A stretch of DNA of 64,000 nucleotides from an uncultured Nostoc sp. (lineage in GTDB: Bacteria > Cyanobacteriota > Cyanobacteriia > Cyanobacteriales > Nostocaceae): positions 899-64,898 of the forward strand of contig NZ_CAXTNP010000005.1 of NCBI RefSeq assembly GCF_964245575.1, in the 5' to 3' direction. The translations under genes and the position numbers were made by a program. Position 1 is the first letter of the stretch; each line of letters opens with the position of its first letter. The notes beneath the pieces were generated by a model, which worked only from the letters and a program-made list of their open reading frames with translations, ran no database searches and was not told the DNA's origin. Shown one piece after another: positions 4,465-44,512 of the stretch.

Positions 4465-6426
4465 TCACGGACTTGCGATCGCAGTTTTCATGGCTTGGAA
4501 GATATGACTTTGGTCAACCACACCCCGAACACCAGGGACACTGTAAGTACCAGAGCTATCTTTAATCTGAAAACCTTGTCCTAGCGATCGGGTCAGAGTT
4601 GATGCGTAAGCACCTTGGTAGTAAACAGGTACAACGCGGCGGCTATGGCTACCCCAGAGATATTTGTAATTTGGATCAGACCCCCAGAAGTGACCAGCAT
4701 CAGTAGGATTGTGCTTGACGAAGGTGATGTCCTTGGCGTTATATTTCAAGCCTTTAGCCTGATTTGGGTTAGGATTGGCAGTCAATTTAGAGGCAAAGTC
4801 ATTATTCAGAGTTAGGTAATGGTCATGGTCAGCAGTAACCAGTAGCAGGTTCTTGCTCCAACCACCATGATTATCTACCCAACTAATTACCTGCTGGACT
4901 GCCTTATCAAAATCATTCATGGTACCAATCAGGTTATCCATGTTGTTGTCATGAGCAGCCCAATCGATATCGCCTCCCTCAACCATCAGCCAGAAGCCAT
5001 CTTTGTCTTTACCTAAAACGGTTAAAGCTGCTTTGGTTAAATCAGCCAAAGTTGGATTTTCGTTAATTTCTTTGGCGATAAAGCTGGCATCAGTTTCACC
5101 AGGAGCCAGAGGACGAACAGTATCGGGTGCAGGAGCATTAGGAGCGATGGGATTACCAGCTGCATCAATGACAGGAACACAATCGCCAATACTACCAGTT
5201 ATTATCTTTCCTGATGGACAGGTAGCCGGAGTTCCAGGCTTGACAACAGAGGTATAAAGTGTGAAGTTACCCAGACCTGTACTGCTGTAGTCACCTTTAG
5301 AGGAGCTGGTAGGAATGTTGCCATCTTGTCCACGCGCACCATACAGACCAAATAATCTGCCTCCCTTATTGGGGTCGATTTTAGCAGCCGTTTTTAGGAG
5401 TGTCTTAGCTGCATTAGGGCCGCGTTCCAAAAAGGTATAGCCGTAACGATTGGATGTAGGATTATTCTTCAAATGCTGGTAAGTGTCTTCTGTAATATAC
5501 GTATACTTAAATACGCCATCGGCTGTACTTGTAGTGGCTTGATTTTCAAAATCTTTGGGATGACCGCCACCCAACAAAATATTGGGCTGAAAGTTCAGCA
5601 ATGTCTGTTGCAAAATGCTGTCTTGGTTGGTCTTGCTGGGGTCGTAAACACTGTCGTACTTACTACGACGATTTACGAAAGAAGCCGCAGCGCCAGGTGT
5701 TGCATGGCTAACAGGTACGGAAGTTACCAAGCCTGTAGACTTACCTTTTTCTTTGGCAATTTCCAGGATTGTTTTCAACTTCTTCTCGTAAATGTCTACG
5801 CCCATCGCGTTGTTAAAGCTTTTTACTCCCGTATACAGAGTTGTAGCTGTATTAGCAGAGTCGGGATAACTATATTTGATGTAATCTTTGTCATAAGTAC
5901 CAGAATTAGCAGGGGTCAAAGGAACCCAAGGAACAGGGCCGCCCTTACTGATGTCATAACCTGACAGATTACCATTCTCTAAGCTATTGCCATCAGCTCG
6001 ATTGCCAGGATTAAAAGGAGTAGGCTGGAATGAGAAGTTGGGACGAATAGGACTTGCACCAGTGAGTGGATTAGACCCATCTAAAGCAGAGTTAGTTGTT
6101 AGATGGGGTTGGTCTGTTGGGTTGGCTGGTGTATTTCCTTGAATTGTTGTGCCGTAAGTAGTCACCAATCCATATCCACTTAGCTTTTGGAAGCTCAGAC
6201 CTGAGCCTTTACCACTTGTGTAAAAAGGAGCGCCTTTGGCAACGGCTGCGGCCCGTGCCATATTCCAACCCATACCATCGCCAATCATGATAATTACGTT
6301 AATTCCATTACCAGCGGCCATAGTCGGCTGAAAAACAGAATTACCAAATACCAGTAGAACGGTGCAGAGGAAGCCAGCCATAGTAAAGGCTAGAAATCGC
6401 TTGTACTTTTGCAAAAATGAAATCAT
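4465..6426 (-). CDS. Alkaline phosphatase (PhoA family), secreted
   Basis: 653 aa. PhoA-type motifs present: IGDGMGW, DSANTATT (active-site Ser region), HATPGAA, EGGDIDWAAHDNN and VTADHDH. N-terminal signal/TM segment. Confidence 0.85.
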   Translation of the reverse strand: MISFLQKYKRFLAFTMAGFLCTVLLVFGNSVFQPTMAAGNGINVIIMIGDGMGWNMARAAAVAKGAPFYTSGKGSGLSFQKLSGYGLVTTYGTTIQGNTPANPTDQPHLTTNSALDGSNPLTGASPIRPNFSFQPTPFNPGNRADGNSLENGNLSGYDISKGGPVPWVPLTPANSGTYDKDYIKYSYPDSANTATTLYTGVKSFNNAMGVDIYEKKLKTILEIAKEKGKSTGLVTSVPVSHATPGAAASFVNRRSKYDSVYDPSKTNQDSILQQTLLNFQPNILLGGGHPKDFENQATTSTADGVFKYTYITEDTYQHLKNNPTSNRYGYTFLERGPNAAKTLLKTAAKIDPNKGGRLFGLYGARGQDGNIPTSSSKGDYSSTGLGNFTLYTSVVKPGTPATCPSGKIITGSIGDCVPVIDAAGNPIAPNAPAPDTVRPLAPGETDASFIAKEINENPTLADLTKAALTVLGKDKDGFWLMVEGGDIDWAAHDNNMDNLIGTMNDFDKAVQQVISWVDNHGGWSKNLLLVTADHDHYLTLNNDFASKLTANPNPNQAKGLKYNAKDITFVKHNPTDAGHFWGSDPNYKYLWGSHSRRVVPVYYQGAYASTLTRSLGQGFQIKDSSGTYSVPGVRGVVDQSHIFQAMKTAIASP

Positions 6427-7856: not shown

Positions 7857-8262
7857 TACTCAAAAAACCTTTTTACAGTACAGTAGTAGCTTCAAAAATT
7901 ATCACCAACCGTATTTGTGGTTAGGATTTTCTCAATTCGGAATTTATATCCTCAAATATTGTCTTTGAACAAGCTATGCTGAAATACTTTGTTTTCTATA
8001 CTTTTTTATAAAATTACTCACCAATATCTTCTGAAAATATGTTTTTTTAGATTCATTAGTATGTGAATACTATAAAAAAATTTATCCCGCTTAATTTAAG
8101 AAATGGTAATGCTTTTGTTAAAAATGAAAAATTAAAGTAAATTAACACTTATAATTTCCAGCAAACTTAGTACCAATCATCCTGTATGAATTTGTTACTA
8201 GTTACACATAAGTTTATTGGTAATCAAAACTTGCGATTAGCCTCCGAGTTGATATTATAGAA

Positions 8263-8277
8263 TGATAATCATTATTT
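8263..8277. promoter_or_regulatory. Zur/Fur-type 7-1-7 box TGATAAT-C-ATTATTT
   Basis: Apart from the spacer base, this is the same 15-mer as the box at 35008. It lies in the AT-rich 730-bp divergent region between the CDF and glycosyltransferase genes. Confidence 0.4.
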
Positions 8278-8585
8278 AAAACCTAATGATGTAGGTAATA
8301 AATATTTTTTTGATACGCAAATAGATATCTATAAGATGCGAATACAATTATCAAGTATATGAGCTTCTAATTTGTATATTCACTTATTACCAATACAGTT
8401 AGTTTAATCATTTTCATTTTTCAAAGTTCCTCCCGGTTCAGCCTGTACCAGAACCTATGACTCTTGGTGGTATAGCGAGCACTGGAAAGTAATATGGGCA
8501 GATTTACCATTTCCGTAACCAGAATTATCTAAGGAACAGTGTCAGCGTCACATCTGTCCTATCCTGGAGATGGATAAATAGTGTT

Positions 8586-9539
8586 GTGGGTGAGACTGTG
8601 TTTTTCAGCGTTGTGATACCGACTTATAATCGCCAACCGATTTTAGAAAAGTGCCTCCGCGCTTTAGAGGTGCAGGAATTAAGTAAGTCAAGTTCGGTTA
8701 CTGATTACGAGATTGTCTTGGTGGATGATGGTTCTACTGATGGCACATTGGAGTGGTTAGCAGCACACAAAGAAGAGTTTCCACATGTACGCTGGTTTCA
8801 GCAAGACCATGCTGGCCCTGCTGCGGCTCGAAATTTGGGGGTAGAACAGGCGCTGGGAGATACGATTATATTTATTGATAGTGATTTAGTAGTGCTGAAT
8901 AATTTCTTACATGCTCACGCTGAGGCGCTAGTGCAAGGAAAGGAGAAATTGGGGAGCGATCGCTTTTTTACTTACGGTGCAGTTATTAATACTTGTAATT
9001 TCAACAACCCAACGGCTGAACCCTACAAAGTAACCGATTTTTCCGCAGCTTTTTTTGCTACGGGAAATGTGGCAATCCCTAAATATTGGCTAGAGAAAGC
9101 TGGACTTTTTGACACTAGTTTCCAACTTTATGGCTGGGAAGATTTAGAACTAGGTGTGCGACTGAAAAAACTAGGTTTGACACTAATTAAATGTCCCGAA
9201 GCCGTCGGCTATCACTGGCATCCACCATTTAAATTAGAGCAAATTCCCCGATTGATTGACCAAGAAATTCAACGCGGACGTATGGGAGTTTTGTTTTATC
9301 AAAAGCATCCTATATGGGAAGTGCGAATGATGATTCAAATGACTTGGCTGCATCGTTTACTTTGGGGGATTTTATCACTCAATGGTGCGCTGAATGAACG
9401 GACAATGGCTCCATTGTTGCAATGGCTAATTAATTTAGGTAAACCACAATTAGCTTTAGAAATTGCCCGAATTTTTCTTAACTGGTATAACGTTAAAGGT
9501 GTTTATCAAGCTTATGCTGAAATGCAGCAAGCATCGTGA
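8586..9539 (+). CDS. Family 2 glycosyltransferase
   Basis: 317 aa. Motifs SVVIPTYNR, VDDGSTDGT and an IDSD (DxD) motif. Confidence 0.85.
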   Translation: MGETVFFSVVIPTYNRQPILEKCLRALEVQELSKSSSVTDYEIVLVDDGSTDGTLEWLAAHKEEFPHVRWFQQDHAGPAAARNLGVEQALGDTIIFIDSDLVVLNNFLHAHAEALVQGKEKLGSDRFFTYGAVINTCNFNNPTAEPYKVTDFSAAFFATGNVAIPKYWLEKAGLFDTSFQLYGWEDLELGVRLKKLGLTLIKCPEAVGYHWHPPFKLEQIPRLIDQEIQRGRMGVLFYQKHPIWEVRMMIQMTWLHRLLWGILSLNGALNERTMAPLLQWLINLGKPQLALEIARIFLNWYNVKGVYQAYAEMQQAS

Positions 9540-9584
9540 TTAAAAAGTAATGAGTACAGAGTTAGGTATAACACACAAGTAAAA

Positions 9585-12356
9585 TTACAAAATCCCTTTT
9601 CCTAATACCTTACGCTTCAAAACCAGTATCCGAGGTCTTGCTCCTGTACCTGAAAAACCTAAACCTTCGCGGAAGATTTCTGGCATATAAAATCGTGCCT
9701 CGCTATCCTTTTCCTTATCTTCGTAAATAACCCCCATTTCCTCTAGCATTCTTACTGTCGGCTGATCCATTTCAAATTGTTCTACGTCAAAAGGAATTTT
9801 TCGTTCAGAAGGGGGATATTTAGGTAGTATTTCTTCAACCCAAGTTTTGAAAGATGGATATTCTTCCTTAGCTTCTTCCACCTTCTTTTCACTACATGGC
9901 TTAAGAGCGCGGCGAATAGCTTGAGGAGGTAAAATACGGCTGGTAGACCACTTTTCAAATTGCACTTCTTTAGTTATTTCTACAGTAATATCGGCTGCAT
10001 GAAACAAAAAACGAACAATATCTCTCGCTTGAAGCCTACCATTAAAATCTGTCAAAGCTGCAAATATCCAGGAAGCTGTATATGCTTCTTTAGAGTTATC
10101 TGAACCTAGCCTTTTACCCCACAATTTTTCTAATCGCTCTATAATATTCTGTTTATTTAAACTGTTAATCTCTACTAGAGATGCATCTATTACTTGAGAC
10201 TGGCTGCATATCCAAAAGACTAAACGTAGAAAAGAATCTTGATCCCAAGATAGATCATAAGAAAGGTAAAGATTTTCAAATTGTTTTAAGTTTTGAGTAA
10301 TTGTATAACGCAGAAAATCACGGCGCAGAAAAATTATTACCCCAAGGTTAGACTGCCTAATTTCTGATAATCTCTTTGGCAAATCATCAATCAAAGCTTT
10401 TAAGGCAATTTTTTCTTGATTGCTGGATGCAATGTTTGAGAATATATCCTCTAATCCATCAAACAGAAAGATAATACGTAAGCCTCTATCTTTCAAATCA
10501 CGATTTATGATGTTAAGAATATTAAGACTATGTGTTTCAGGATTCACACCTATAGCTTTTGCAATTTGACCAATCCAGAATTCCGTCCATTCTGGTTCAC
10601 TCCAGTTTTCAGTTGCAATTGATCTTTTTATTCTATCCACATATTCTGAAAGTATAAACTCAGGAACACTATCTCCCAAAGCTAATCTCACCTCCTTTCT
10701 AGCTTCGTTAATCACAGTTTTTGCATTATCTTTAATGTTACTTGATTCAAGGAAAGGAAAAATATGTGTTTTTAGCTGTGATTCTTGAATAGTATTATCT
10801 ATACGATTCAAAAAACTTTCCCAGTATTTAAAACGTGATAACTGTATATAGTTAAACGTTTTTCCTGCACCTTTAGCTCCAATTGATACGACATGAGGTA
10901 ATTCATCTCGAAAATTAGTCGCTAAATTCTTCAATGGTTCCGTTACTAATAAATCTTCTCCCCGGCCTTGTTCAGCATACTCATATTGCTGACACAAATC
11001 TCTGAGTCTACGAACCTCAACAATTACCTGATGCTCTTTTATAGATTTTGACTTCAATTCCTGATCATTGGTTATAAACAACTGTTCTTTAGCCCACTCA
11101 TTTGCTACATTCATTACTGAAGTTGGACTTAGTTTTAAGCGGGAATCTTCCCAATTGTTAATATATAGTAATTCTTGGGCAAAATAGGTTTCTTTTATTT
11201 CTAATCTTGTAGCATATAAATTATCTTCTTCAGGCTGTGCATAAGCAGACTGAAATCTCACCAATGCATCTTCAAAGGCTGGTAAAGACTTTAGTTCTGG
11301 CATTAACATACTAATTAATAAACACGGCTCGTAATAGCTTTTATCATCAACTCTTTCTTCTGGCGGTGCAACTCTACCAATTTGCTCTAAAACAAGACTT
11401 GTACCTATGACTGATTGCTCGGTGATTGTTGTCACAAGAAAGCGTTGAATTCTGGGATCAAAAATGATGGGGCTGGATATTTCACTCAAACCCGCTCTCA
11501 AATCAATGAATACATAGTCAGCACCAACAGCCTTACCTAGACTATGAATAGCATTGCCCCATTCCCAAGCTCCGTCTGGACTTCTAACTAACTGCTCTGG
11601 CAGAATAGGTGTATCTAATACCTGATCATCATCAAGACAGGCAGGTAAAAAATAGACAGTTGATTTTCCTTCATATTTAGAAGATTTTTTAACTTCTCTG
11701 GCAAACAATGAGAGTGTTTGTTCTCTTTCAATAGGAGAATAGTGATAAACTTCAAGAAAATCAATTAAAGAAACAGATGGTTGCTGCTTTTCTGAACGAT
11801 TCCAATAGGTAAGACCAGGAGCTTCTAAATCAGCATCAATAACCAATACATTAATAGACAAATCTAGTTCTTTAGCTCTATCCAGTACAGCAAAAAGATG
11901 CGCTGCTAAATTCAATGTTCTACCTACACCACCCTTGAAAGAATAAAAGGCTACTAAATTAGGCTTTTCAGTATATGCATCTGGAAGTTTAACTTGTCTT
12001 TCTATTACACTTTCTGTTTCTGAATCATTTTCAATATAAGCAATTTCTTCCCAAAATGGACGTATAGAAATATCGATTGCAGATGCTTCTTCTCCGAGAA
12101 TAAATTCCACTGGTAATGTAGCATCACCAAGGTCGAGTTGTATAAGAGACTGATCTTCTTGATACCAGTCGCCAAACCATTCTTTTAAGGTATAGTTTGC
12201 ATTTTCTATACTCTGGTCGTTTTTCAGACCAATTTCTAAAGCATCTGAGAAACAACGAATTCTTAATACCCCATTTGGTAGTTTGCTGCCATAGTGGGTT
12301 TTACGACAAATAGTTCTTCTAACATCAAGCCATGTCAGTAGCCTTAGAGATTTCAT
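9585..12356 (-). CDS. Large dual P-loop NTPase: ParA/MinD-like module with KGGVGRT variant Walker A plus a second classical P-loop module
   Basis: 923 aa. Residues 140-147 are FKGGVGRT (nt 11916-11939), followed by VLVIDADLEAPG and YVFIDLRAGL. Residues 493-500 are GAKGAGKT (nt 10857-10880), with IIFLFDGLED at residues 628-637 (nt 10446-10475). The N-terminal ~130 aa and C-terminal ~170 aa are unassigned. Confidence 0.75.
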   Translation of the reverse strand: MKSLRLLTWLDVRRTICRKTHYGSKLPNGVLRIRCFSDALEIGLKNDQSIENANYTLKEWFGDWYQEDQSLIQLDLGDATLPVEFILGEEASAIDISIRPFWEEIAYIENDSETESVIERQVKLPDAYTEKPNLVAFYSFKGGVGRTLNLAAHLFAVLDRAKELDLSINVLVIDADLEAPGLTYWNRSEKQQPSVSLIDFLEVYHYSPIEREQTLSLFAREVKKSSKYEGKSTVYFLPACLDDDQVLDTPILPEQLVRSPDGAWEWGNAIHSLGKAVGADYVFIDLRAGLSEISSPIIFDPRIQRFLVTTITEQSVIGTSLVLEQIGRVAPPEERVDDKSYYEPCLLISMLMPELKSLPAFEDALVRFQSAYAQPEEDNLYATRLEIKETYFAQELLYINNWEDSRLKLSPTSVMNVANEWAKEQLFITNDQELKSKSIKEHQVIVEVRRLRDLCQQYEYAEQGRGEDLLVTEPLKNLATNFRDELPHVVSIGAKGAGKTFNYIQLSRFKYWESFLNRIDNTIQESQLKTHIFPFLESSNIKDNAKTVINEARKEVRLALGDSVPEFILSEYVDRIKRSIATENWSEPEWTEFWIGQIAKAIGVNPETHSLNILNIINRDLKDRGLRIIFLFDGLEDIFSNIASSNQEKIALKALIDDLPKRLSEIRQSNLGVIIFLRRDFLRYTITQNLKQFENLYLSYDLSWDQDSFLRLVFWICSQSQVIDASLVEINSLNKQNIIERLEKLWGKRLGSDNSKEAYTASWIFAALTDFNGRLQARDIVRFLFHAADITVEITKEVQFEKWSTSRILPPQAIRRALKPCSEKKVEEAKEEYPSFKTWVEEILPKYPPSERKIPFDVEQFEMDQPTVRMLEEMGVIYEDKEKDSEARFYMPEIFREGLGFSGTGARPRILVLKRKVLGKGIL

Positions 12357-12802
12357 AGTCTTTCAAGTTCTCCATTAATCCATTTGACAATTTCTAACAA
12401 TTTATTTTCTAATTCTTCATCAGTTGTATCTGCTAATGAAGAGCATCCACCATATCGCCACATTTGGTTAACTTCTCCAGGAGTAAATTTTCTTTCATCA
12501 TCCTTGCCACTTTTACCTTTTATTGGTTTCATACTTAACTGTGCTGGTAATTTCAAATTGTTGCCAGCAGATAAACAATCTAGTAGTTTGTTCACATCAT
12601 GCTGGCATTTCTCAATATCTCTACATAAATCGGTACGATTTGTTCGCCGTTTCTCTCTCCGCATCAAAACTGCTTTCAAACCACATTCAACTGCATAAAA
12701 TAAGAGTAACCGATGAGCGTTAGTTCGTGGTGTTATACAAGAAGCAGACCAATTATCTCGCCAAGCTTTCTCTATTTCTCTATCTGTAAACGGAATTACC
12801 AT
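12353..12802 (-). CDS. Small all-helical protein, HEPN-like (putative RNase-type effector)
   Basis: 149 aa. Its stop overlaps the start of the 923-aa gene in an ATGA. Has a helix-1-like AVECGLKAVL segment, then R61-x6-H68 (RDIEKCQHDVNKLL, nt 12599-12622). Confidence 0.55.
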   Translation of the reverse strand: MVIPFTDREIEKAWRDNWSASCITPRTNAHRLLLFYAVECGLKAVLMRREKRRTNRTDLCRDIEKCQHDVNKLLDCLSAGNNLKLPAQLSMKPIKGKSGKDDERKFTPGEVNQMWRYGGCSSLADTTDEELENKLLEIVKWINGELERL

Positions 12803-12846
12803 TATGCTATTTACAGTCTAAGTAACTACGAATAAACTCAGATATA

Positions 12847-15360
12847 TTATGTCAAAATCGCCCCACCCATCAATCGCTCATACCGATATTTCAACTCTTC
12901 TTTCATCAAATACCAGCGCTCTAAAGTTGCATCCGTCTCTATTATTTTCTCTGCTGCTTGCCGCGCTAAAAGTAAAACTTCTTCATCTTCAACCAAGCTT
13001 GCTAAGGTAAAATCTGGCACTCCAGATTGACGAGTTCCCAGTACTTGCCCTGGCCCACGAAAACGCATATCCATCTCTGAGATGAAAAAGCCATCCTGAG
13101 ATTGTTCCAATACCTTCAACCGTTGTTGAGCATCAGGACTCCTAGAACTGCTCATCAACAGACAGTAAGACTGAGCCGCGCCACGACCAACGCGCCCCCG
13201 CAGTTGGTGCAGTTGCGATAAGCCAAATCGCTCTGCATTTTCAATGAGCATAACCGTAGCATTAGGTACGTCTACACCAACTTCAACAACAGTAGTAGAA
13301 ACCAAAATTTGTGTTTGGTTATCACGAAATTTGGTAATCGCTTCATCCTTGTCGGCTGAACTCATACGACCATGTAGCAGCCCTACTTGAAAGTCAGGAA
13401 AAATGCTTTCTTGTAACTTTTGATGCTCCTCCACAGCCGATCGCAGATCCAGTTTTTCTGATTCTTCTACCAAGGGCAAAACCACGTAAACTTGTCTACC
13501 TTGAGCAATTTCTCGGCGGATGAGGTCGTAAGCATGGTTGCGTTGCTGACCTGACAAGACTGTTGTCTGAATCTTTTGTCGTCCTGGCGGTAACTCATCA
13601 ATTTGGCTCACATCCAAATCCCCGTGTATCGTCAGAGCCAAGGTTCTGGGAATCGGGGTAGCTGTCATAGTTAACACATGGGGTTGCTCACCTTTTTGCT
13701 GCAAACGCGCCCGTTGTTCTACCCCAAAGCGATGCTGCTCATCTATGACCACTAAGCCCAGTTGATGGAAGTTTACGGGGTCTTGAATCAATGCATGGGT
13801 TCCCACTAACAGAGGTAATTCACCAGTTCCTAACTGAGAATGTATTTGTCTTCGTTTAGCAGTTTTAGTAGAACCTGTCAGTAATTCCACTGGTAAATGC
13901 AAAAGGTTAAACCAACTAACTAACTTGCGATAATGTTGTTCTGCCAAAACTTCTGTGGGAGCCATCAGCGCTGCTTGGTAGCCAGATTGAATTGCTGCGA
14001 GGATAGCCAGTACAGCGACGACAGTTTTACCAGAACCGACATCGCCTTGCACCAAACGATTCATTGGTACAGGTTTCTGTAAATCGTTGAGGATGTCGTT
14101 GAGGACTCGTTGCTGTGCGCCAGTGAGTTGAAAAGGCAGTATTTCATGGAATTTCTCTACAAGTTGACCTCGTGGAACGAGGATGGCGCTGGTTTGAATC
14201 GCCCTTGCTTGCTGCTGACGTTGCAATAACCCAAGTTGCAGGTAGAAAAATTCATCAAATACTAGGCGACGACGGGCAACTTGCAGGACGGCGCTATCAT
14301 TGGGAAAATGGATATTAGCGATCGCATCTTTCAATTCCATCAAACCATACTTCTGTCGCAAACCATTTGGCAAAGGGTCTTTCAGGTGAGCCGCAGCAGG
14401 TAAAGCAGCTATTACCGCCTGTCGCACTGTATTCGCCACCACGCCTTCAGTCAGCCCATAAATTGGCACTACCCGCCCAATATTCAGCGACTCAATGGTA
14501 TCTCCTGGATTTGCCAAAACCTCTAATTCTGGATTATCTAGTGTCAAGCCGTATTTACTTTCTTTTACCAACCCACACGCCGCTAAAATACTACCCACTG
14601 GATAACGGCGTTTTAAACTTTCTTGCCAAGCGCGACTGCTAAAGCGCGTACCTGCATAAAAACGACCAATTTTGATTTGACCACTGTTATCTTTTACGAC
14701 CAGTTCTAAAATTGATAACTTCTGATTTTTAGGGCTAGTAAAGCAGTTGCAACGCTTCACTGTAGCCACTATTGTCACCGTCTCACCTGCCTGTAACTCG
14801 CGGATATTCACCTGACGCGCATAATCAATGTGGTCACGAGGATAGTAGAAAAGTAAATCGCGGACGGTGTGTAAACCAAGCCGTGCCAAATTACCAGCTT
14901 TTTTGAAGCCTATTTCTGGTAAATCGCTGAGTTTTTGGTCAATGTTCGGTGCAAGCCTCCGACTTACCTCAGTGATAATTTTAGATTTTGGGTCGCACCT
15001 TTGGTGCGCTGGAAGCGCAACTTGGATTTTGGATTGATAAATTCTCCCTTGCTCCCCTGCTCCTTTGCTCCTCTGCTCCCCATGCTCCTCTTGCTGTAGT
15101 TGCGAGAGATACCTACGAGTCTCTGCTACTAAATGTTGTCTTTCTTCTTGTGCGAGATGTGGATAACTAGCAAATTGCACCGCTAGTCCTTGCCAACGGC
15201 GGCGTTCAGTTTGGGGTAAGCCTGTTGGAAATTTGCCCAAAGTCAGGCTAAGAAATTCACTGAAGCGGTATTGTCTGCCCACCAAGTCTGTAAAGCCGCG
15301 TTCGGCTTCTATTGCCAAGGCTTTGTGCAATCGTATCCAATCTGGTTTTTCATTAGTCAT
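12847..15360 (-). CDS. recG: ATP-dependent DNA helicase RecG
   Basis: 837 aa. Wedge/OB region plus SF2 helicase motifs GDVGSGKT, DEQHRFG, TATPIPR and QLRGRVGRG. Confidence 0.95.
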   Translation of the reverse strand: MTNEKPDWIRLHKALAIEAERGFTDLVGRQYRFSEFLSLTLGKFPTGLPQTERRRWQGLAVQFASYPHLAQEERQHLVAETRRYLSQLQQEEHGEQRSKGAGEQGRIYQSKIQVALPAHQRCDPKSKIITEVSRRLAPNIDQKLSDLPEIGFKKAGNLARLGLHTVRDLLFYYPRDHIDYARQVNIRELQAGETVTIVATVKRCNCFTSPKNQKLSILELVVKDNSGQIKIGRFYAGTRFSSRAWQESLKRRYPVGSILAACGLVKESKYGLTLDNPELEVLANPGDTIESLNIGRVVPIYGLTEGVVANTVRQAVIAALPAAAHLKDPLPNGLRQKYGLMELKDAIANIHFPNDSAVLQVARRRLVFDEFFYLQLGLLQRQQQARAIQTSAILVPRGQLVEKFHEILPFQLTGAQQRVLNDILNDLQKPVPMNRLVQGDVGSGKTVVAVLAILAAIQSGYQAALMAPTEVLAEQHYRKLVSWFNLLHLPVELLTGSTKTAKRRQIHSQLGTGELPLLVGTHALIQDPVNFHQLGLVVIDEQHRFGVEQRARLQQKGEQPHVLTMTATPIPRTLALTIHGDLDVSQIDELPPGRQKIQTTVLSGQQRNHAYDLIRREIAQGRQVYVVLPLVEESEKLDLRSAVEEHQKLQESIFPDFQVGLLHGRMSSADKDEAITKFRDNQTQILVSTTVVEVGVDVPNATVMLIENAERFGLSQLHQLRGRVGRGAAQSYCLLMSSSRSPDAQQRLKVLEQSQDGFFISEMDMRFRGPGQVLGTRQSGVPDFTLASLVEDEEVLLLARQAAEKIIETDATLERWYLMKEELKYRYERLMGGAILT

Positions 15361-27659: not shown

Positions 27660-28194
27660 TTTTACAGATTCCTTTGGGCTGGAGACAACACCAAGCTTGC
27701 ATCATTTCTCGTTATTATTCTCCCACCAACCGACACGCTTCGGATGAAGCATTATATGGGGAGGGATAAATGCTCAAATGTTGGTAAATACTCCCTGACT
27801 CCCTGGTGTATCGCAAGTGATGTGAAATGCGTAAGCGTAGATTGTCGTAGACATCGCCTACCCGCTTCGGAATGAATTCCAAGGCTAATAGCGAAAGTCA
27901 TCTCAAAGATGACTAAAGAAAAGTTAAAAAAATTAAAGGCTAATTGAAAACACAAAAAACCCCGACTTGATAGCCGAGGTAGATGGGAGAAGTCCAAATG
28001 TCGATGGGATATACCGATACCGAAATCTTTTTTTCTTAGCTAACACCAGTTAGATAGTTAACGTTTGGTCTTTGCTAAGTTATGTTAATAAATTTAACAA
28101 TAACATTACAAATAGTCAACTAGACTTGACAAAAAAAGACTGATATCTTTTATAAGAACTACTTATCAAGGACAGTATAGGATTATTTTTCAAC

Positions 28195-39378: not shown

Positions 39379-42300
39379 TTAGCTGTTAAGGATATTGGCT
39401 ACTGTGGCATAAGCCTTGGTTTGGATAATTTCAAACTTCCAGTCTGAAGAATAATCAGGCAACTCATAGCCAACACTCTTAACATGAGCCAACATCAACT
39501 CATCTCGTTGATGCCAAACTGCAAATATTCTCTCTCTGCCATCATAAAGCGTTTCTAGGTCGATTTGATAAACCTCATTTATCCGCTTTAGTTTCAAGCC
39601 TAACAAATTTAACAGTCGGCTGAGTATTTTTATTGCCGAAATCTGCTCTTTCTCGCCGACTAAGTTAATACTAAGCGCTCTCTTAATATGCTTACTATGC
39701 TGAAAAACAACATTTTTCAGCAATATTAAATCTGGATTACTCTCGGTAAATTCTCGTTCTGCTTCGAGAAACTGAAGTATTCTCAAAGCTCTCATAGCCT
39801 CAACTTTGAGCGTGTAAGTTTTTAAATCTGGCAGAAAAACTTTCCCTTCACCCCAAGACAATTGCTGATGCCATTCTTGCTGATCTCTGACGTGAAAATA
39901 CTCGCTTTCGTGAGTTAGATAATAATGAATTAACAGTTGACGATAATATCCGTGGTCATCCTGCAATTTCAGGCAAGGAGTAACTTCTACACCATACCTT
40001 TGCCTAAGGACATATTTATTGATTTGGTTGCGTTCTCCATCAGTCAGAGAATGCTTCATTAATAACTGCTCATATTCTACATAATCGATATCTTTAGCAT
40101 TAGCTACAGCAGTTGCTACAGATAGTTGATTTTGCTGCTTAATATCTTTAATTTTGCGTTTAATATCTTTAGCTTTTTGACGGCTTTGCGTCCAATCTTT
40201 TTGAACTTTGACAATTTCTAAAATTAATCTTCTGCGGGTAGCTAAATCATCAGCGTCAGTTGCCAAAAACGCCAGGCGTAAATCTCGAATAATATTATTG
40301 TGAACAGCATTACTCCGCATCTGAATTTGATGTCCATCAGCAATCAAACCATCTTGCATTGATTGACGGTAGAGGCGGATAGAGGCATTTACCCGTGCAG
40401 ATAACTTGGCCCAAGTTCGCAAATGAATCGGATCATAAACTAAAGGTAAATCCACATCTATTTTATGTAGTGGACTAAGCAAAGCTAAGTTTTCTTTTTG
40501 ATTTTCTTGATACCAATCAGATAGCAAGCGATAATTTGTACTACCACTACCAATTAAGCCAATACCTCGTTTAGCGCACCAGACGACACGCGGCACATCA
40601 TCCCGCACTCTTGCTAATGCTTGTCTTGCTTCTGAGTCAGGAATTACCCCTTGAAAAATGCCATAAACTCGGTCGAAATGTTGGACATCAATACTAATTC
40701 CTGTACCAAGGCTTGGGGTAACAAAAACGCCGTCATATTCAGAGATTTTTTGGTTGATAGCTGCGATAAAATCAACCGCTGCGTGGCCGGGTGTGTTTGT
40801 AGTGTGGCTACTAACCACCAAAGTTTTAGGAAATTGCCTTCGTAATTTTTGTAACCGCTCTTTCAGATAACGCTCAATTGTTTCACAACTGTAACGCCCA
40901 GCGCGACTATCGGTAGTAACATAACATTTACGTCCAGCAAGTAAATCTAATTCCAGTTGGTGAATTAGCGGTGTTGGATTCGGCGAATCATAAAAAGTTA
41001 CGTCCCAACCATGCTGAGGTTTCCACTGGTTAAGAACTACCCAAGGTGTTAATTTAATTCCTGCCAATCCCTGTAAATATTCAAGTGACACATCTGATAA
41101 ATCGGCATCTTGGGCAATTACTAATCCCCCAGTTGTTAAAACTGTAGAAATTAGTCGCTGGAATAATTTTAATATTTTTACACGCTTGTGTTTACAAGTA
41201 TTACTGTTTAATAGATGCCACAAAGATTGCTCCACCTCATCCAGAATTACTATTGCTCCCCGCCAATTTTCCAGGTTAAGTTTCCAAATAGAATCAACGC
41301 ACAATCCAAGAGAGTGCTGAGGAGAGAGAGAGCGAAGAATGGGAGGAGCGGGGGTAAGTGTTTTATCAATCCTTTTATCCGCATCTTCTTTATGTGTTCC
41401 CCATTGAATACCAATTTTATCACACAAAAATCTTCCTAGTAGGATTCTGTGAGTAATTAACAAAACGGGTTGATTTCTAATTTTTGCTTGCTGAACAACG
41501 GCTTGCAGTGCTGTAGTTTTACCTGTTCCTTTTGCTGATTTGACTCCTACTAATCCAGAGGTGGGGAAAGGTATTTCACTTATATAAGGGCGATTGAAGG
41601 TGAGTGCAGCAGGAATGCTTAACTCGGTGTGGGGTTTGGTTTGAGCAAGATAAATTTCTAAATCAACACTTTGACGATAAACTTTCTCGAAACTACTTGC
41701 ACCTTTAGCAACGATAAACTCATCAACTCCTTTTTCTATTCCTGGAAGTTCAATGACTTTAACAGTGCAATTTTTTTGCTGGAATAAACAACCAAGCTGG
41801 GAAATGGCATTATTTACAGCAGCAATTGTTTTAGGTTGAGTTTCAAAATCAAAGCAAATATAAAAGCTACGCTTTGTAATTGCAAACGCTGCTAAATCAG
41901 GAATTAGCTGACGACGGGTAACTTTGCCAAATTCATCTTTAACAACCCGATAACCACTGGTAATTCCGGGAATGGCAATAGCTGCATATCCTTGCGTCAA
42001 AAGCGTTGCTGCTTTCTTCACACCCTCGCAAAGAATGAGCGGAATGTTCTGTTGCATCACCCATTGCCAAAAGCCTTCAGCTTCACCATCAGCAGTAATG
42101 GTGATATTGTCAGGCATAACCAGATTGTAACGTCCAGCGACTTGCTGCCATACTTGCAGCGTTACGCGCAAACAAAATATCCGCGTTGGTGTGCTAGGGG
42201 GATGCTCGTATTTGATGGATTTACCATTGTGATTCTGTCGGGGCTGGTTTGGCTTAAAGCATCCCCATTCCATCATTTGCCAATTATTCAAAGGGTCTAG

Positions 42301-42537
42301 CCCCGAACACCACCAACCACCTTCAGTGATATGAGCATAACGCTGCAACCATCCACTTTTCACCATTCCGGTATTGGTGCGAGGGAGTAGCTCAGAAATC
42401 AATAGGTACTCATAAGCTGTTACGCCTTGGAGCGACTTAAAATTGAGTTGCGCTAAGTGTAAGTCTATACCACTACTCTTGACTAATTCTTCAAGGTGTT
42501 GGGGGTGTAAGTAGTGCAGATGCATAGGGAAAGGCAC
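39379..42537 (-). CDS. Toprim-like (DUF3854) + P-loop helicase-like replication protein, CyRepA-type
   Basis: 1052 aa. The N-terminal region has ILCEGVKKA (Toprim-like Glu) and ICFDFE. Walker A is GVKSAKGTGKTT (residues 331-342, nt 41512-41547). Walker B is IVILDEVEQ (residues 429-437). The C-terminal ~450 aa is helical. Confidence 0.65.
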   Translation of the reverse strand: MPFPMHLHYLHPQHLEELVKSSGIDLHLAQLNFKSLQGVTAYEYLLISELLPRTNTGMVKSGWLQRYAHITEGGWWCSGLDPLNNWQMMEWGCFKPNQPRQNHNGKSIKYEHPPSTPTRIFCLRVTLQVWQQVAGRYNLVMPDNITITADGEAEGFWQWVMQQNIPLILCEGVKKAATLLTQGYAAIAIPGITSGYRVVKDEFGKVTRRQLIPDLAAFAITKRSFYICFDFETQPKTIAAVNNAISQLGCLFQQKNCTVKVIELPGIEKGVDEFIVAKGASSFEKVYRQSVDLEIYLAQTKPHTELSIPAALTFNRPYISEIPFPTSGLVGVKSAKGTGKTTALQAVVQQAKIRNQPVLLITHRILLGRFLCDKIGIQWGTHKEDADKRIDKTLTPAPPILRSLSPQHSLGLCVDSIWKLNLENWRGAIVILDEVEQSLWHLLNSNTCKHKRVKILKLFQRLISTVLTTGGLVIAQDADLSDVSLEYLQGLAGIKLTPWVVLNQWKPQHGWDVTFYDSPNPTPLIHQLELDLLAGRKCYVTTDSRAGRYSCETIERYLKERLQKLRRQFPKTLVVSSHTTNTPGHAAVDFIAAINQKISEYDGVFVTPSLGTGISIDVQHFDRVYGIFQGVIPDSEARQALARVRDDVPRVVWCAKRGIGLIGSGSTNYRLLSDWYQENQKENLALLSPLHKIDVDLPLVYDPIHLRTWAKLSARVNASIRLYRQSMQDGLIADGHQIQMRSNAVHNNIIRDLRLAFLATDADDLATRRRLILEIVKVQKDWTQSRQKAKDIKRKIKDIKQQNQLSVATAVANAKDIDYVEYEQLLMKHSLTDGERNQINKYVLRQRYGVEVTPCLKLQDDHGYYRQLLIHYYLTHESEYFHVRDQQEWHQQLSWGEGKVFLPDLKTYTLKVEAMRALRILQFLEAEREFTESNPDLILLKNVVFQHSKHIKRALSINLVGEKEQISAIKILSRLLNLLGLKLKRINEVYQIDLETLYDGRERIFAVWHQRDELMLAHVKSVGYELPDYSSDWKFEIIQTKAYATVANILNS

Positions 42538-42925
42538 GAAGGGAAGACAATGAGATTAAAACATTAACATGCATCTGCTTTTTTTCTCTAAGAGAGATTG
42601 CGATGCTTTTATGATGCTTTTTTTACTTCGTTATAGGAGATACATCGGTTCGGATATTAGTAGGTTATTCTGCCTATTAGATCCCCGAAGTAATAATTTT
42701 GTATTGTGATATTTGTTCGCTATTAATTTTTATTTATCAGTAAATTTTTCTGTTAAGCAATGCGATCGCTTGAGGGGTTACCGCAGCGATCGCTATGGGG
42801 TGACATTTTGCAAGACAAGCGTTGTCAGGATTCATAGATGCACAGTAGGTTGTCGTCAGATATTACTTTTGGGATAAAAGCCTATTATTCTGGCTAGAAG
42901 CGATGAGTTACACTATTAAGCAAAG

Positions 42926-43365: not shown

Positions 43366-43447
43366 TAAATTTTAACCCGTATAATTTCCGAGGCTACCCA
43401 ATAAGTCTAAAACAGAAAATGTAGATGTGTATTTAGAGGGTGTAGCC

Positions 43448-44512
43448 ATGTCAGAAAGTTCAGCTTTTGCTCGTGTGTTTAACTTAGGAGTAGACCTTCT
43501 TCAGAAAGGAGATAAGCAAGGAGCAATTATGGCTTGGAACGAAGCATTAAGTCTGAATCATAATAATTCCCATGCTTACTATTATAGAGGTGTCACCAAA
43601 GCTGAGATAGGAGATTACAACGGTGCAGTTGAAGACTTGAACCAGGCACTCCGTATCACTCCCCAATATTTAAATGCTAAACGTAAATTAGAAAAAATAT
43701 ATCAAGATTTATCACCAGATGTCTTTACACCTCAAGCAAATGACCATCTTACACGCTATCGACGTGGAATATTTAGATTACAATTTCAAGAGTATGAAGA
43801 AGCAATCAAAGAATTCAATCAATCATTACACATTAGTCATGATTTTGCACCAGCATACTACAATCGAGGAAAGAGCTTTCATAAATTGAAAAAAAATGAT
43901 GAAGCTGCTAAAGACTTTCAAATAGCTGCCAAATTATTTTGTGAAAATGGTCAATCAGAAAAACTAGCTGTTTGGAATCCATTTGAGTTAGGTGAGTCTA
44001 AGAGAGAGGAAGCAATTTCTTATCTTATTACATATTTATCAAGAACAAGTTCCTATGATGACAAAAGATTAGCCGCATCAGCTATACGCAAACTTGCTAT
44101 AAACTTCAAAACTGTTCCTGATTTAGCTATTAATCTTTTATTAGATAACTTAACTCATCCTGCTCCACAGGTTAGACAGTATGTTTTAAAGGCTCTTACA
44201 GTTATCAACTTACCTAGTTATGTAATTCCAAATATTGAAGAAATAGCTAAGAATGATCCCAAAGTATATAATAGAAAGATAGCAGAAGATATGTTACAAA
44301 AATTAAAACCTGTTTCTCATAAAAGATTCCAAAATCACAATAAATATGAACCAGATCATATACATTCTGTAAAGGAAGCAGATGTGGATTCGGAAGAATT
44401 TAGTCATTCTTGGAATCAAGAATATTTTTATGAACAGGCACATGACACATCTATGGATTATGGTTATTTGGATGACCTAAGTAATCCAGAGGATTATCTT
44501 TACAATTATTAA
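43448..44512 (+). CDS. TPR + HEAT-repeat protein
   Basis: The track starts at GTG 43427; the ATG at 43448 gives MSESSAF. Has three or more TPR units (AIMAWNEALSLNHNNSHAYYYRGV...), then HEAT/PBS-lyase-like repeats (DKRLAASAIRKLA, APQVRQYVLKAL), then an acidic Tyr-rich tail. Confidence 0.65.
   Translation: MSESSAFARVFNLGVDLLQKGDKQGAIMAWNEALSLNHNNSHAYYYRGVTKAEIGDYNGAVEDLNQALRITPQYLNAKRKLEKIYQDLSPDVFTPQANDHLTRYRRGIFRLQFQEYEEAIKEFNQSLHISHDFAPAYYNRGKSFHKLKKNDEAAKDFQIAAKLFCENGQSEKLAVWNPFELGESKREEAISYLITYLSRTSSYDDKRLAASAIRKLAINFKTVPDLAINLLLDNLTHPAPQVRQYVLKALTVINLPSYVIPNIEEIAKNDPKVYNRKIAEDMLQKLKPVSHKRFQNHNKYEPDHIHSVKEADVDSEEFSHSWNQEYFYEQAHDTSMDYGYLDDLSNPEDYLYNY

Follow-up and report, generated by a model that had tools for sequence, protein, structure and literature searches.

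A two-gene cassette downstream of recG

The DNA analyzed here, hereafter the window, is a 64-kb stretch from an uncultured Nostoc sp. (assembly GCF_964245575.1, contig NZ_CAXTNP010000005.1, positions 899-64,898 of the forward strand), and positions are those of the window unless another sequence is named. Our subject is a pair of minus-strand genes, A and BC, that lies between recG and a gene for a GT2 glycosyltransferase (Table 1). The evidence assembled below suggests that the pair is a conflict module, most likely directed against phages, and that it belongs to the superfamily of PDC-M28, a predicted phage defense system encoded by three genes, two of which are fused in BC.

The initial annotation of the locus described two minus-strand open reading frames (ORFs) of 149 and 923 amino acids that overlap in an ATGA, are wedged between recG and the glycosyltransferase gene, and look richer in AT than their flanks. 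The ORFs and the sequence bear out the overlap, and the coordinates together with Pfam matches on an orthologous locus bear out the position. The overlap, in which the start codon of BC lies over the stop codon of A, indicates that translation of the two genes is coupled. A terminator scan of the 44-bp spacer between recG and A found none, so it is possible that recG and the pair are co-transcribed. The promoter scan returned a single promoter-like match (12873-12846) that was not above chance, and an Rfam scan found no RNA family within or near the cassette. Exact-protein look-ups for P0121 and P0110 returned no record.

Base composition agrees with the AT-richness seen by eye. The GC content of the cassette is 0.36 versus 0.41 for the window, and the GC content at third codon positions (GC3) of A and BC is 0.241 and 0.227, respectively, versus a window median of ~0.36, with a single ORF of the window lower. 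The cassette was also said to be free of HIP1 sites. None of the 51 sites in the 64 kb falls within it, and it lies inside an interval of 5362 bp (8956-14318) that is the longest in the window without a HIP1 site; the weight given to this absence did not stand, as the Poisson probability for 3.2 kb without a site is 0.077, and among 52 intervals the longest is expected to reach ~5 kb. Depletion of HIP1 was rejected as a sign of foreign origin, since it is not significant alone.

Table 1. Genes, domains and motifs of the A-BC locus, and the related phage gene. Positions are those of the window except in the last row.
Feature	Position	Strand	Description	Basis
recG	12847..15360	-	upstream flank	Pfam on orthologous locus
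Spacer, recG stop codon to A start	12803..12846	-	44 bp, same strand	coordinates
Gene A	12353..12802	-	149 aa; small helical protein, putative effector or partner	ORF list
A motif YAVECGLK	nt 12674-12697	-	Y36, E39, G41, K43	invariant columns
A H68	nt 12599-12601	-		invariant column
A motif RYGG	nt 12446-12457	-	R116-Y117	invariant columns
ATGA overlap	12353..12356	-	BC start codon over A stop codon, 4 nt	sequence reading
Gene BC	9585..12356	-	923 aa; two NTPase modules; equivalent to PDC-M28B and PDC-M28C fused	ORF list
BC N-terminal domain	11982..12356	-	aa 1-125, small alpha/beta	AF2; pLDDT ~70-88 at aa 10-90
BC ParA/MinD-like (SIMIBI) domain	11379..11963	-	variant P-loop	NF047398
BC first P-loop KGGVGRT	nt 11916-11936	-	aa 141-147	
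BC ParA-like motif LVIDADLEAPGLT	nt 11808-11846	-		
BC ParA-like motif YVFIDLRAGLSE	nt 11481-11516	-		
BC helical linker	10902..11378	-	aa 327-485, low confidence in part	AF2; no Pfam match
BC Sll1717-family ORC/Cdc6-STAND-like NTPase module	9774..10889	-		NF047389; pLDDT 80-94
BC Walker A GAKGAGKT	nt 10857-10880	-	aa 493-500, canonical	
BC Walker B IIFLFDGLED	nt 10446-10475	-	NACHT-like	
BC RRD element after next strand	nt 10317-10325	-		
BC C-terminal tail	9588..9773	-	aa 862-923; invariant RFYMPEIFREGLGF motif	invariant columns
Spacer between convergent BC and GT2 3' ends	9540..9584	.	45 bp; downstream edge of variable slot	coordinates
GT2 glycosyltransferase gene	8586..9539	+	downstream flank, converges on BC 3' end	Pfam on orthologous locus
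Mic1_05	L086:4031-4651 = MN013189.1 nt 8171-8791		phage Mic1	
AF2, AlphaFold2; pLDDT, predicted local distance difference test; NTPase, nucleoside triphosphatase.

A and BC form one co-evolving module

Relatives of the cassette were gathered as 78 loci from a species-level genome collection. Wherever the DNA upstream of an orthologous BC is present, the gene immediately before BC is a homolog of A, and at 30-35% identity the adjacency holds in most relatives from seven other phyla or classes, among them members of the Alteromonadaceae, Selenomonadaceae, Symbiobacteriaceae, Polyangiaceae and Acidobacteriaceae as well as Terrabacter and Omnitrophota. The 4-nt ATGA overlap is kept across phyla in 35 of the 47 informative loci, and the others vary between a 1-nt overlap and a 24-nt gap. 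Pairwise distances among A proteins follow those among BC proteins in a mirror-tree comparison (r=0.864; Mantel 0/2000), and no neighbor other than A recurs outside close relatives. A and BC are one self-contained, co-evolving module, and the expectation that homologs of both genes co-occur elsewhere is borne out across phyla.

Horizontal transfer is implied by the 60-62% identity between cyanobacterial and Desulfobacterota copies. In nearly every locus and phylum, the cassette has a lower GC3 than its flanks. Members of the family are concentrated among bacteria that are filamentous, colonial or giant, including Nostocales, Coleofasciculus, Planktothrix, Microcystis, cable bacteria, Thiomargarita, Parabeggiatoa and Polyangiaceae. 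It is essentially absent from plasmids, where a search matched only megaplasmids of Ralstonia. The full-length BC relatives on these replicons (36% identity) are from R. pseudosolanacearum and R. solanacearum (NZ_CP069246.1, 786711-789437; CP065532.1, 1548688-1552524), and no annotated feature lies beneath the matches in the plasmid gene table.

Several copies are irregular. A BC relative in Desulfobacterales bacterium HSG2 (L051:9779-12676, 35% identity) has no KGGVGR motif and is preceded only by a 65-amino-acid C-terminal remnant of A, itself preceded by two unrelated small ORFs; this is probably a degenerating copy. BC is split into two ORFs in L025, L033, L035 and L052, A is split or truncated in L071, L012 and L056, and in Rhizonema (L036 and L037) BC ends near residue 437. 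Frameshifted and truncated copies such as these could reflect frequent pseudogenization, as in dispensable defense genes, or assembly error, and because assembly error is possible the apparent frameshifts (L025, L033, L035, L052 and L071) were not counted as pseudogenes.

BC joins a variant ParA-like domain to a STAND-like NTPase

More than 1222 homologs of BC were found. Pfam gave no significant family for the whole of A or BC or for three sub-regions of BC, and profile searches of PDB sequences with A and BC returned nothing significant. NCBIfam, in contrast, splits BC into two matches. NF047398 ('KGGVGR-motif variant AAA ATPase', AAA_KGGVGR) covers residues 132-326 with an E value of 2e-46 and 158.7 bits, against a curated cut-off of 90, and NF047389 ('Sll1717 family P-loop ATPase', ATPase_Sll1717) covers residues 490-861 with an E value of 5.4e-18 and 65 bits, below the curated cut-off of 75. 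Across the whole of BC the AF2 model reaches moderate confidence (pLDDT 68.6), but it is good at residues 480-900.

The first module carries the motifs FYSFKGGVGRT, LVIDADLEAPG and YVFIDLRAGLSE. The patterns FYSFKGGVGR[ST], DxDL[ED]APG and hhhhDxRxG are invariant throughout the superfamily, including B proteins encoded by a gene of their own. The signature lysine of the KGGVGR domain (K141) is kept and the P-loop lysine is arginine in every member examined, across phyla, and from this conservation we take the substitution to be an ancient fixed feature and not a sign of decay. Two P-loops had been assigned to BC at the outset; both are present, and the first is non-canonical, with arginine at the position of the P-loop lysine.

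In the second module the Walker A motif is canonical and the Walker B motif NACHT-like, and the next strand is followed by an RRD element that we take to resemble the TTRD sensor motif of STAND proteins. Foldseek matched the module to archaeal ORC2 (1w5s; E 6e-4, probability 1.0), to Dark/Apaf-1 (E 8e-3) and to NOD2 (E ~0.09). Together, the Walker motifs and the fold matches identify it, at the level of a structural model, as an ORC/STAND-type NTPase. Residues 700-900 are modeled as helical domains with small beta elements, and the alignment with ORC2 extends over ~475 columns with template modeling (TM) scores of 0.19-0.35. Only ~220 residues follow the NTPase core. In the tail, AF2 places a beta-hairpin (strands at residues 878-880 and 888-890) and a helix (893-899), and the protein may close in a winged-helix-like end.

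The remaining parts of BC are less familiar. The 125-residue N-terminal domain has no detectable relatives and no Pfam match; its invariant residues are W9, D11, R14, S37, D38, E41, W60, W64, E84, W102 and E104. A PD-(D/E)xK assignment, suggested by the pattern S37-D38-x-x-E41, was dropped because no conserved lysine follows. Between the two NTPase modules, pLDDT is below 50 at residues 288-396, and helices are modeled at residues 402-481.

A is a candidate enzyme with a non-canonical active site

The homolog search for A returned 531 proteins. The family is small, with 539 clusters at 50% identity among 1.84 billion representatives, and nearly all of its members are standalone proteins of 130-165 amino acids. 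Residues Y36, E39, G41, K43, H68, R116 and Y117 are invariant among 73 relatives, down to 25% identity, and the A proteins of a paralogous family likewise show no variation at the E, C, K, H and R-Y positions. Alignment of the two A families with hhalign gives a probability of 96.3% (E 1.5e-9), and the homology is remote. On this pattern of conservation, A is a candidate enzyme with a non-canonical active site.

The initial annotation read A as a HEPN-like protein with R61 and H68 as the active residues, and this did not survive the comparison of homologs: H68 is invariant, R61 varies even among close homologs, and no conserved arginine stands 4-6 residues before H68 in the 73 relatives, as an Rx4-6H motif would require. 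The AF2 model of A is confident (pLDDT 91.7) and consists of a helical bundle with a beta-hairpin insert. Foldseek searches of PDB and of the viral structures of BFVD with this model gave no significant match. The top PDB entries are HEPN proteins (1wol, 4nqf, 2hsb and 1ufb; E 0.35-1, TM 0.33-0.41), and the best HEPN match in BFVD has an E value of 0.29 (TM 0.41-0.43). The Pfam HEPN model is touched by two of the 73 relatives at an E value of 0.003 or weaker, and certain relatives carry the database name 'HEPN domain-containing'. A HEPN identity was not adopted because the fold matches are non-significant and the Rx4-6H motif is missing; that A is 'HEPN-like' is at most remotely possible.

The cassette is a divergent branch of the PDC-M28 superfamily

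The protein models of PADLOC were scanned with A and BC at E values up to 1. Only PDC-M28 models matched, and none of a validated system did so (Septu, Gabija, PARIS, Lamassu, Hachiman, Avs, Mokosh, Menshen and others). BC matches PDC-M28B at residues 129-201 (E 4.6e-14) and PDC-M28C at residues 735-860 (E 5e-11), both partially. A matches PDC-M28A at an E value of 0.008, and 11 of its 73 relatives do so at 0.01 or better. More distant loci (21-29% identity) have an A-like gene of their own and either a fused BC gene or separate B and C genes. Fused paralogs among them score intermediately (B ~1e-40, C ~1e-27), and with split A, B and C loci (L067 and L076) the matches to the PDC-M28 models are full-length (B 5e-60, C 2e-58, A ~1e-12). 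The series is thus graded from the family of the window through fused paralogs to split loci, and on this ground we place the cassette as the most divergent, B-C-fused branch of the PDC-M28 superfamily. The initial view that the pair maps to no named system is not borne out, as all three PDC-M28 components match and graded relatives link them. PADLOC itself would probably not call a system at the window locus, because the matches to its hidden Markov models (HMMs) are weak and partial.

The PDC label stands for 145 'phage defence candidates' that were predicted from their embedding in BREX, DISARM or type I restriction-modification (RM) loci (Payne et al. 2024, bioRxiv 10.1101/2024.01.29.577857). 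PDC-M28 itself is listed as three families, FAM_01482>>FAM_02546>>FAM_01036, with 121 RefSeq instances, and the supplement gives the family identifiers only, with no mechanism or further annotation (Payne et al. 2024, 10.1101/2024.01.29.577857). A literature search for PDC-M28, KGGVGR and Sll1717 in the relevant sense found no paper.

The cassette and PDC-M28 share their gene order and a small A protein with the ECxLK, H and RY motifs. The B protein of PDC-M28 has a KGGVGR ParA-like domain and is matched by the first module of BC, and the C protein belongs to the Sll1717 P-loop family and is matched by the second. The two differ in that PDC-M28 has three separate genes, A>>B>>C, whereas a single ORF covers B and C both here and in the whole subfamily; the N-terminal 125 residues of BC are also divergent. 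Their settings differ as well, in that PDC-M28 was identified within BREX, DISARM or type I RM loci whereas the window cassette lies between recG and the glycosyltransferase gene, and no BREX, DISARM or type I RM genes are among the top neighbor families of the cassette loci.

The slot after recG and other genomic settings

The block rpsB-tsf-orf278-recG-A-BC is conserved in 16 loci of the Nostocales. The genera represented include Nostoc, Calothrix, Aulosira, Dolichospermum, Trichormus, Anabaena and Sphaerospermopsis, with two other cyanobacterial metagenome-assembled genomes (MAGs) in addition, and the downstream neighbor of BC varies between genera. BC identity tracks recG identity at a lower level (66-74% versus 80-86%), which indicates that the pair is old at the recG site and is no recent insertion in the window genome.

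The slot is not uniformly occupied. The possibility had been raised that the pair sits at this same locus in essentially all Nostocales; it does keep the post-recG site in the 16 loci, but it is not universal, as other cargo or a remnant is found elsewhere. In Nostoc edaphicum CCNP1411, whose recG is 95% identical, a caspase/FGE-sulfatase protein and a Pepco protein lie between recG and the glycosyltransferase gene (L082:9076-11275), and in Anabaena cylindrica the slot holds Uma2 and a full-length HEC-01A/B pair (L085:8725-11263). HEC-01 was rejected as a validated defense system in the slot, since it gave no protection when tested in its source paper. Nostoc MS1 and Fischerella have ordinary genes in the slot, and Desmonostoc has the pair away from recG. 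A natural near-empty site is present in Nostoc sp. CCCryo 231-06 (L055:9746-10282), where an in-frame deletion remnant joins A residues 1-66 directly to BC residues ~829-923 between intact recG and glycosyltransferase genes. By these comparisons, the rpsB-tsf-recG neighborhood of the Nostocales behaves as a hotspot for defense-like cargo. An NsnB-like ATPase pair was also seen in this neighborhood in Nostoc sp. MS1 (L083:627-2547).

Away from recG, the Microcystis copy lies among PIN and HigB-type toxin-antitoxin (TA) pairs and a D12 methyltransferase. Of 122 neighbors pooled from 24 non-syntenic loci, approximately one in ten matches a defense family (NsnB, MADS, AriA, IetA, AbiLi, NB-ARC with TPR repeats, or Phd), and the others are ordinary genes.

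Elsewhere in the window, Rfam places the photosynthesis regulatory small RNA PsrR1 at 27955-28034 on the minus strand (71.5 bits, E 1.7e-11), unrelated to the cassette. A 1058-amino-acid protein with a DUF3854 domain (3.7e-50), and no assignment for its other parts, is encoded at 39382-42555 (minus strand) and adjoins a TPR/HEAT-repeat protein (43385-44509, plus strand) that has the lowest GC3 of the window (0.211). These two genes may mark another foreign or mobile-element-related region.

Cyanophages carry a disabled fragment of BC

A protein search of phage genomes gave one match, gene 05 of Microcystis phage Mic1 (206 amino acids, annotated 'ParA family protein'). The product aligns only to BC residues 478-700 (39% identity, E 9e-49), which is the core of the second NTPase, and it is 61% identical to the BC of the Microcystis host. 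Orthologs with the same end points are present on four further viral contigs (L089-L092, ~4941-5516). The P-loop is lost in all phage copies, and differently in each, with IGAKGAGKTF of the host replaced by IGEDVAKKTF, IGEGVAENTF, IGEGVAENIF or IGADVAEYTF, and the stretch from Walker B to the sensor is well conserved.

The gene holds a fixed position between Mic1_04 and a FEN gene. Its identity across phages is 67-69%, compared with 89-96% for all of its neighbors, and the ratio of nonsynonymous to synonymous substitution rates (dN/dS) among phage copies is 0.32-0.37 with dS unsaturated. From these rates, gene 05 appears to be under purifying selection and yet to evolve faster than its neighbors. 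A host-derived fragment with a dead P-loop that evolves rapidly under selection suggests a decoy that poisons an oligomerizing immune NTPase, and the fragment supplies independent evidence that BC matters to phages.

Mic1 ORF5 has been published as the ParA of a ParABS partition system and used to argue for a lysogenic cycle (PMC7156551, PMC11237433). NCBIfam matches Mic1_05 to the Sll1717 module only and to no ParA model, and the published reading therefore looks like an annotation transfer from BC proteins called 'ParA family'.

Other viral contigs contain related genes. The predicted viral contig 3300029959_001625, an IMG/VR UViG, encodes a complete paralog-type pair of A (170 amino acids) and BC (948 amino acids; L093:5180-8529). 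N-terminal KGGVGR[ST] domains were also found in other, longer viral architectures of 622 and 1107 amino acids (L094:2374-4239 and L096:5980-9300), suggesting that the KGGVGR domain is a module reused in several contexts.

Discussion

A role in conflict or defense is probable for the cassette, on the grounds of its homology to a PADLOC candidate, the other cargo in a variable slot, the TA and defense islets around some copies, low GC3, transfer between phyla and the disabled copy in phages. We put at roughly 60% the probability that A and BC are a two-gene conflict module, most likely anti-phage, of the PDC-M28 superfamily with B and C fused, in which a BC switch activates A and which phages counter. 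BC would be the sensor and switch, with an infection cue leading to nucleotide-dependent assembly of the STAND-like module, and the KGGVGR domain may serve as a nucleotide-dependent dimerization or clamp element with little or no hydrolysis. Assembly would release or activate A as a toxic effector, possibly together with the N-terminal domain of BC. A would probably be a metal-independent nuclease of a remote HEPN-like type, and the outcome would be abortive infection or growth arrest. Mic1-like cyanophages may counter the module with a truncated STAND-like core that has a dead P-loop and would co-assemble with BC and poison it.

Some points weigh against this reading. The PDC-M28 HMMs match the window family weakly and in part only, A in particular, and the superfamily consists of candidates only, PDC-M28 explicitly so (Payne et al. 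2024, 10.1101/2024.01.29.577857). The model of BC is only moderate overall, BC has no TPR, WD40 or LRR repeat sensor of the kind typical of STAND immune receptors by Pfam, and the Foldseek and PDB searches, the lack of an Rx4-6H motif and the two Pfam HEPN hits establish no enzymatic fold for A. The post-recG position, with the same strand and 44-bp gap, is kept across genera of the Nostocales and is stabler than that of most defense genes, which leaves some room for a role linked to recG. Most of the 122 pooled neighbors are ordinary genes, and the decoy role of the phage fragment is something that we infer.

Comparison with known systems shows where the cassette departs from them. Like STAND/NLR-like NTPases (Avs and bNACHT; Apaf-1/NB-ARC and NACHT), BC has a Walker A GxxGxGKT, a NACHT-like hhhhDGLED, a sensor-like arginine in RRD and fold matches to ORC2, Dark and NOD2. 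Unlike them, it has neither a TPR, WD40 or LRR sensor at its C-terminus nor a recognized N-terminal effector, and it adds an inserted ParA-like NTPase domain and a separate small partner gene; Pfam gives no NACHT or NB-ARC match for BC. BC shares K141, the GG, DxD and hhhhD elements and weak matches to ParA, MinD, VirC1 and BcsQ models with the SIMIBI ATPases ParA, MinD and Soj, but its P-loop lysine is invariantly arginine and the domain sits within a 923-residue multidomain protein. No ParB, parS, MinE or similar partner recurs among the neighbors, where A is the sole conserved partner, and the database label 'ParA family protein' on BC homologs is, by these features, misleading. A resembles the HEPN RNases (HepT, Cas13/Csm6 and HEC-08) as a small all-alpha bundle with HEPN proteins as its top, non-significant fold matches, and it differs from them in the missing Rx4-6H motif, in conserved Y, E, K, H and R-Y residues that lie on different helices and in its beta-hairpin insert.

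The closest described parallel may come from conflict systems of multicellular bacteria, some of which join predicted-inactive MinD/ParA-like domains to STAND AP-ATPases (Kaur, Burroughs, Iyer, Aravind 2020, PMC7159879). Both combine a predicted non-canonical MinD/ParA-type domain with a STAND-type NTPase and both are enriched in multicellular bacteria. The setting of the published systems is a vWA-MoxR ternary or peptide-processing one (Kaur et al. 2020, PMC7159879), whereas the only dedicated partner here is A, with no vWA, MoxR or peptide-processing genes.

Among the alternatives, the one that fares best keeps the module and reassigns its parts, such that the N-terminal domain of BC or BC itself is the effector and A is an adaptor, sensor or inhibitor and no nuclease. 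STAND immune proteins usually carry N-terminal effectors, the N-terminal domain of BC has many invariant acidic and aromatic residues, and no nuclease fold or family matches A significantly. Still, the Y/E/K/H/R/Y cluster of A looks catalytic and persists in relatives as distant as 25% identity and among the paralogs, while the N-terminal domain of BC is likewise without a family or fold match and its homology is weak in the paralogs. We consider this arrangement unlikely, although it deserves more weight than the alternatives that follow.

It is less likely again that the pair is a selfish addiction module, with A as toxin and BC as an ATP-dependent antidote or regulator, kept by post-segregational killing. 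The compact architecture with overlapping reading frames, the TA pairs around the Microcystis copy, the Phd antitoxins that adjoin other copies and the patchy distribution with horizontal transfer would all fit. A 900-amino-acid dual-NTPase antidote would be atypical, however, and the family is almost never on plasmids, with the Ralstonia megaplasmids as the sole case; syntenic retention in the Nostocales and the phage mimic of BC fit the sensing of infection better. Defense is a further role of many TA systems, so this explanation overlaps the anti-phage one.

About equally improbable is that the pair serves regulated cell death or kin conflict in multicellular bacteria and answers stress or developmental cues rather than phages specifically. 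The concentration of the family in filamentous, colonial or giant bacteria suits it and echoes the systems of Kaur et al. 2020 (PMC7159879). The BC fragments encoded by phages, in contrast, point to phages as the antagonist, and PDC-M28 was found embedded in anti-phage loci. Such a system would be compatible with the anti-phage reading and does not exclude it.

The least probable of the four is that the pair assists DNA repair, replication or segregation together with recG, as a co-transcribed housekeeping function of polyploid filamentous cyanobacteria in which DNA is the substrate of the ParA-like and ORC/Cdc6-like modules. DNA binding is common among ParA-type domains, archaeal ORC2/Cdc6 is the best fold match, and the pair directly follows recG on the same strand in the 16 loci across the Nostocales and two other cyanobacterial MAGs, over a spacer with no terminator-like site. 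Against this, recG adjacency is absent outside the clade and in Desmonostoc, other Nostocales hold unrelated cargo or, in a close Nostoc relative, an in-frame deletion remnant in the slot, GC3 is low in nearly all loci, ~60% identity between phyla implies transfer, the Microcystis copy lies in a TA islet, and phages carry a disabled fragment.

A stronger version of the anti-phage reading holds that the cassette represents an uncharacterized class of anti-phage immunity, in which one protein unites a STAND/ORC-like NTPase and a ParA-type dimerization switch whose P-loop has arginine, and the two control a small effector with a new catalytic arrangement of Y-E-K-H-R-Y residues. Mic1-like phages would disarm it with a host-derived, truncated decoy of the STAND-like core with a dead P-loop. 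We put this stronger version forward tentatively and think it rather less probable than the general reading, though ahead of every alternative above. If it is true, a captured subunit fragment that poisons an immune NTPase oligomer would be a new type of anti-defense. Microcystis and Mic1 offer a concrete host-phage pair for testing both defense and the possible decoy counter-defense.

A ParA-like domain with a fixed lysine-to-arginine change in its P-loop, joined to a STAND-like NTPase, is an architecture without a studied precedent. Two corrections to annotation follow, in that BC proteins are not ParA partition ATPases and Mic1 ORF5 is not a ParA homolog. If the cassette does act in defense, bloom-forming and symbiotic cyanobacteria (Nostoc, Dolichospermum, Microcystis and Planktothrix) would have in it a widespread form of immunity, and so would cable bacteria and giant sulfur bacteria, groups in which few defense systems have been studied.

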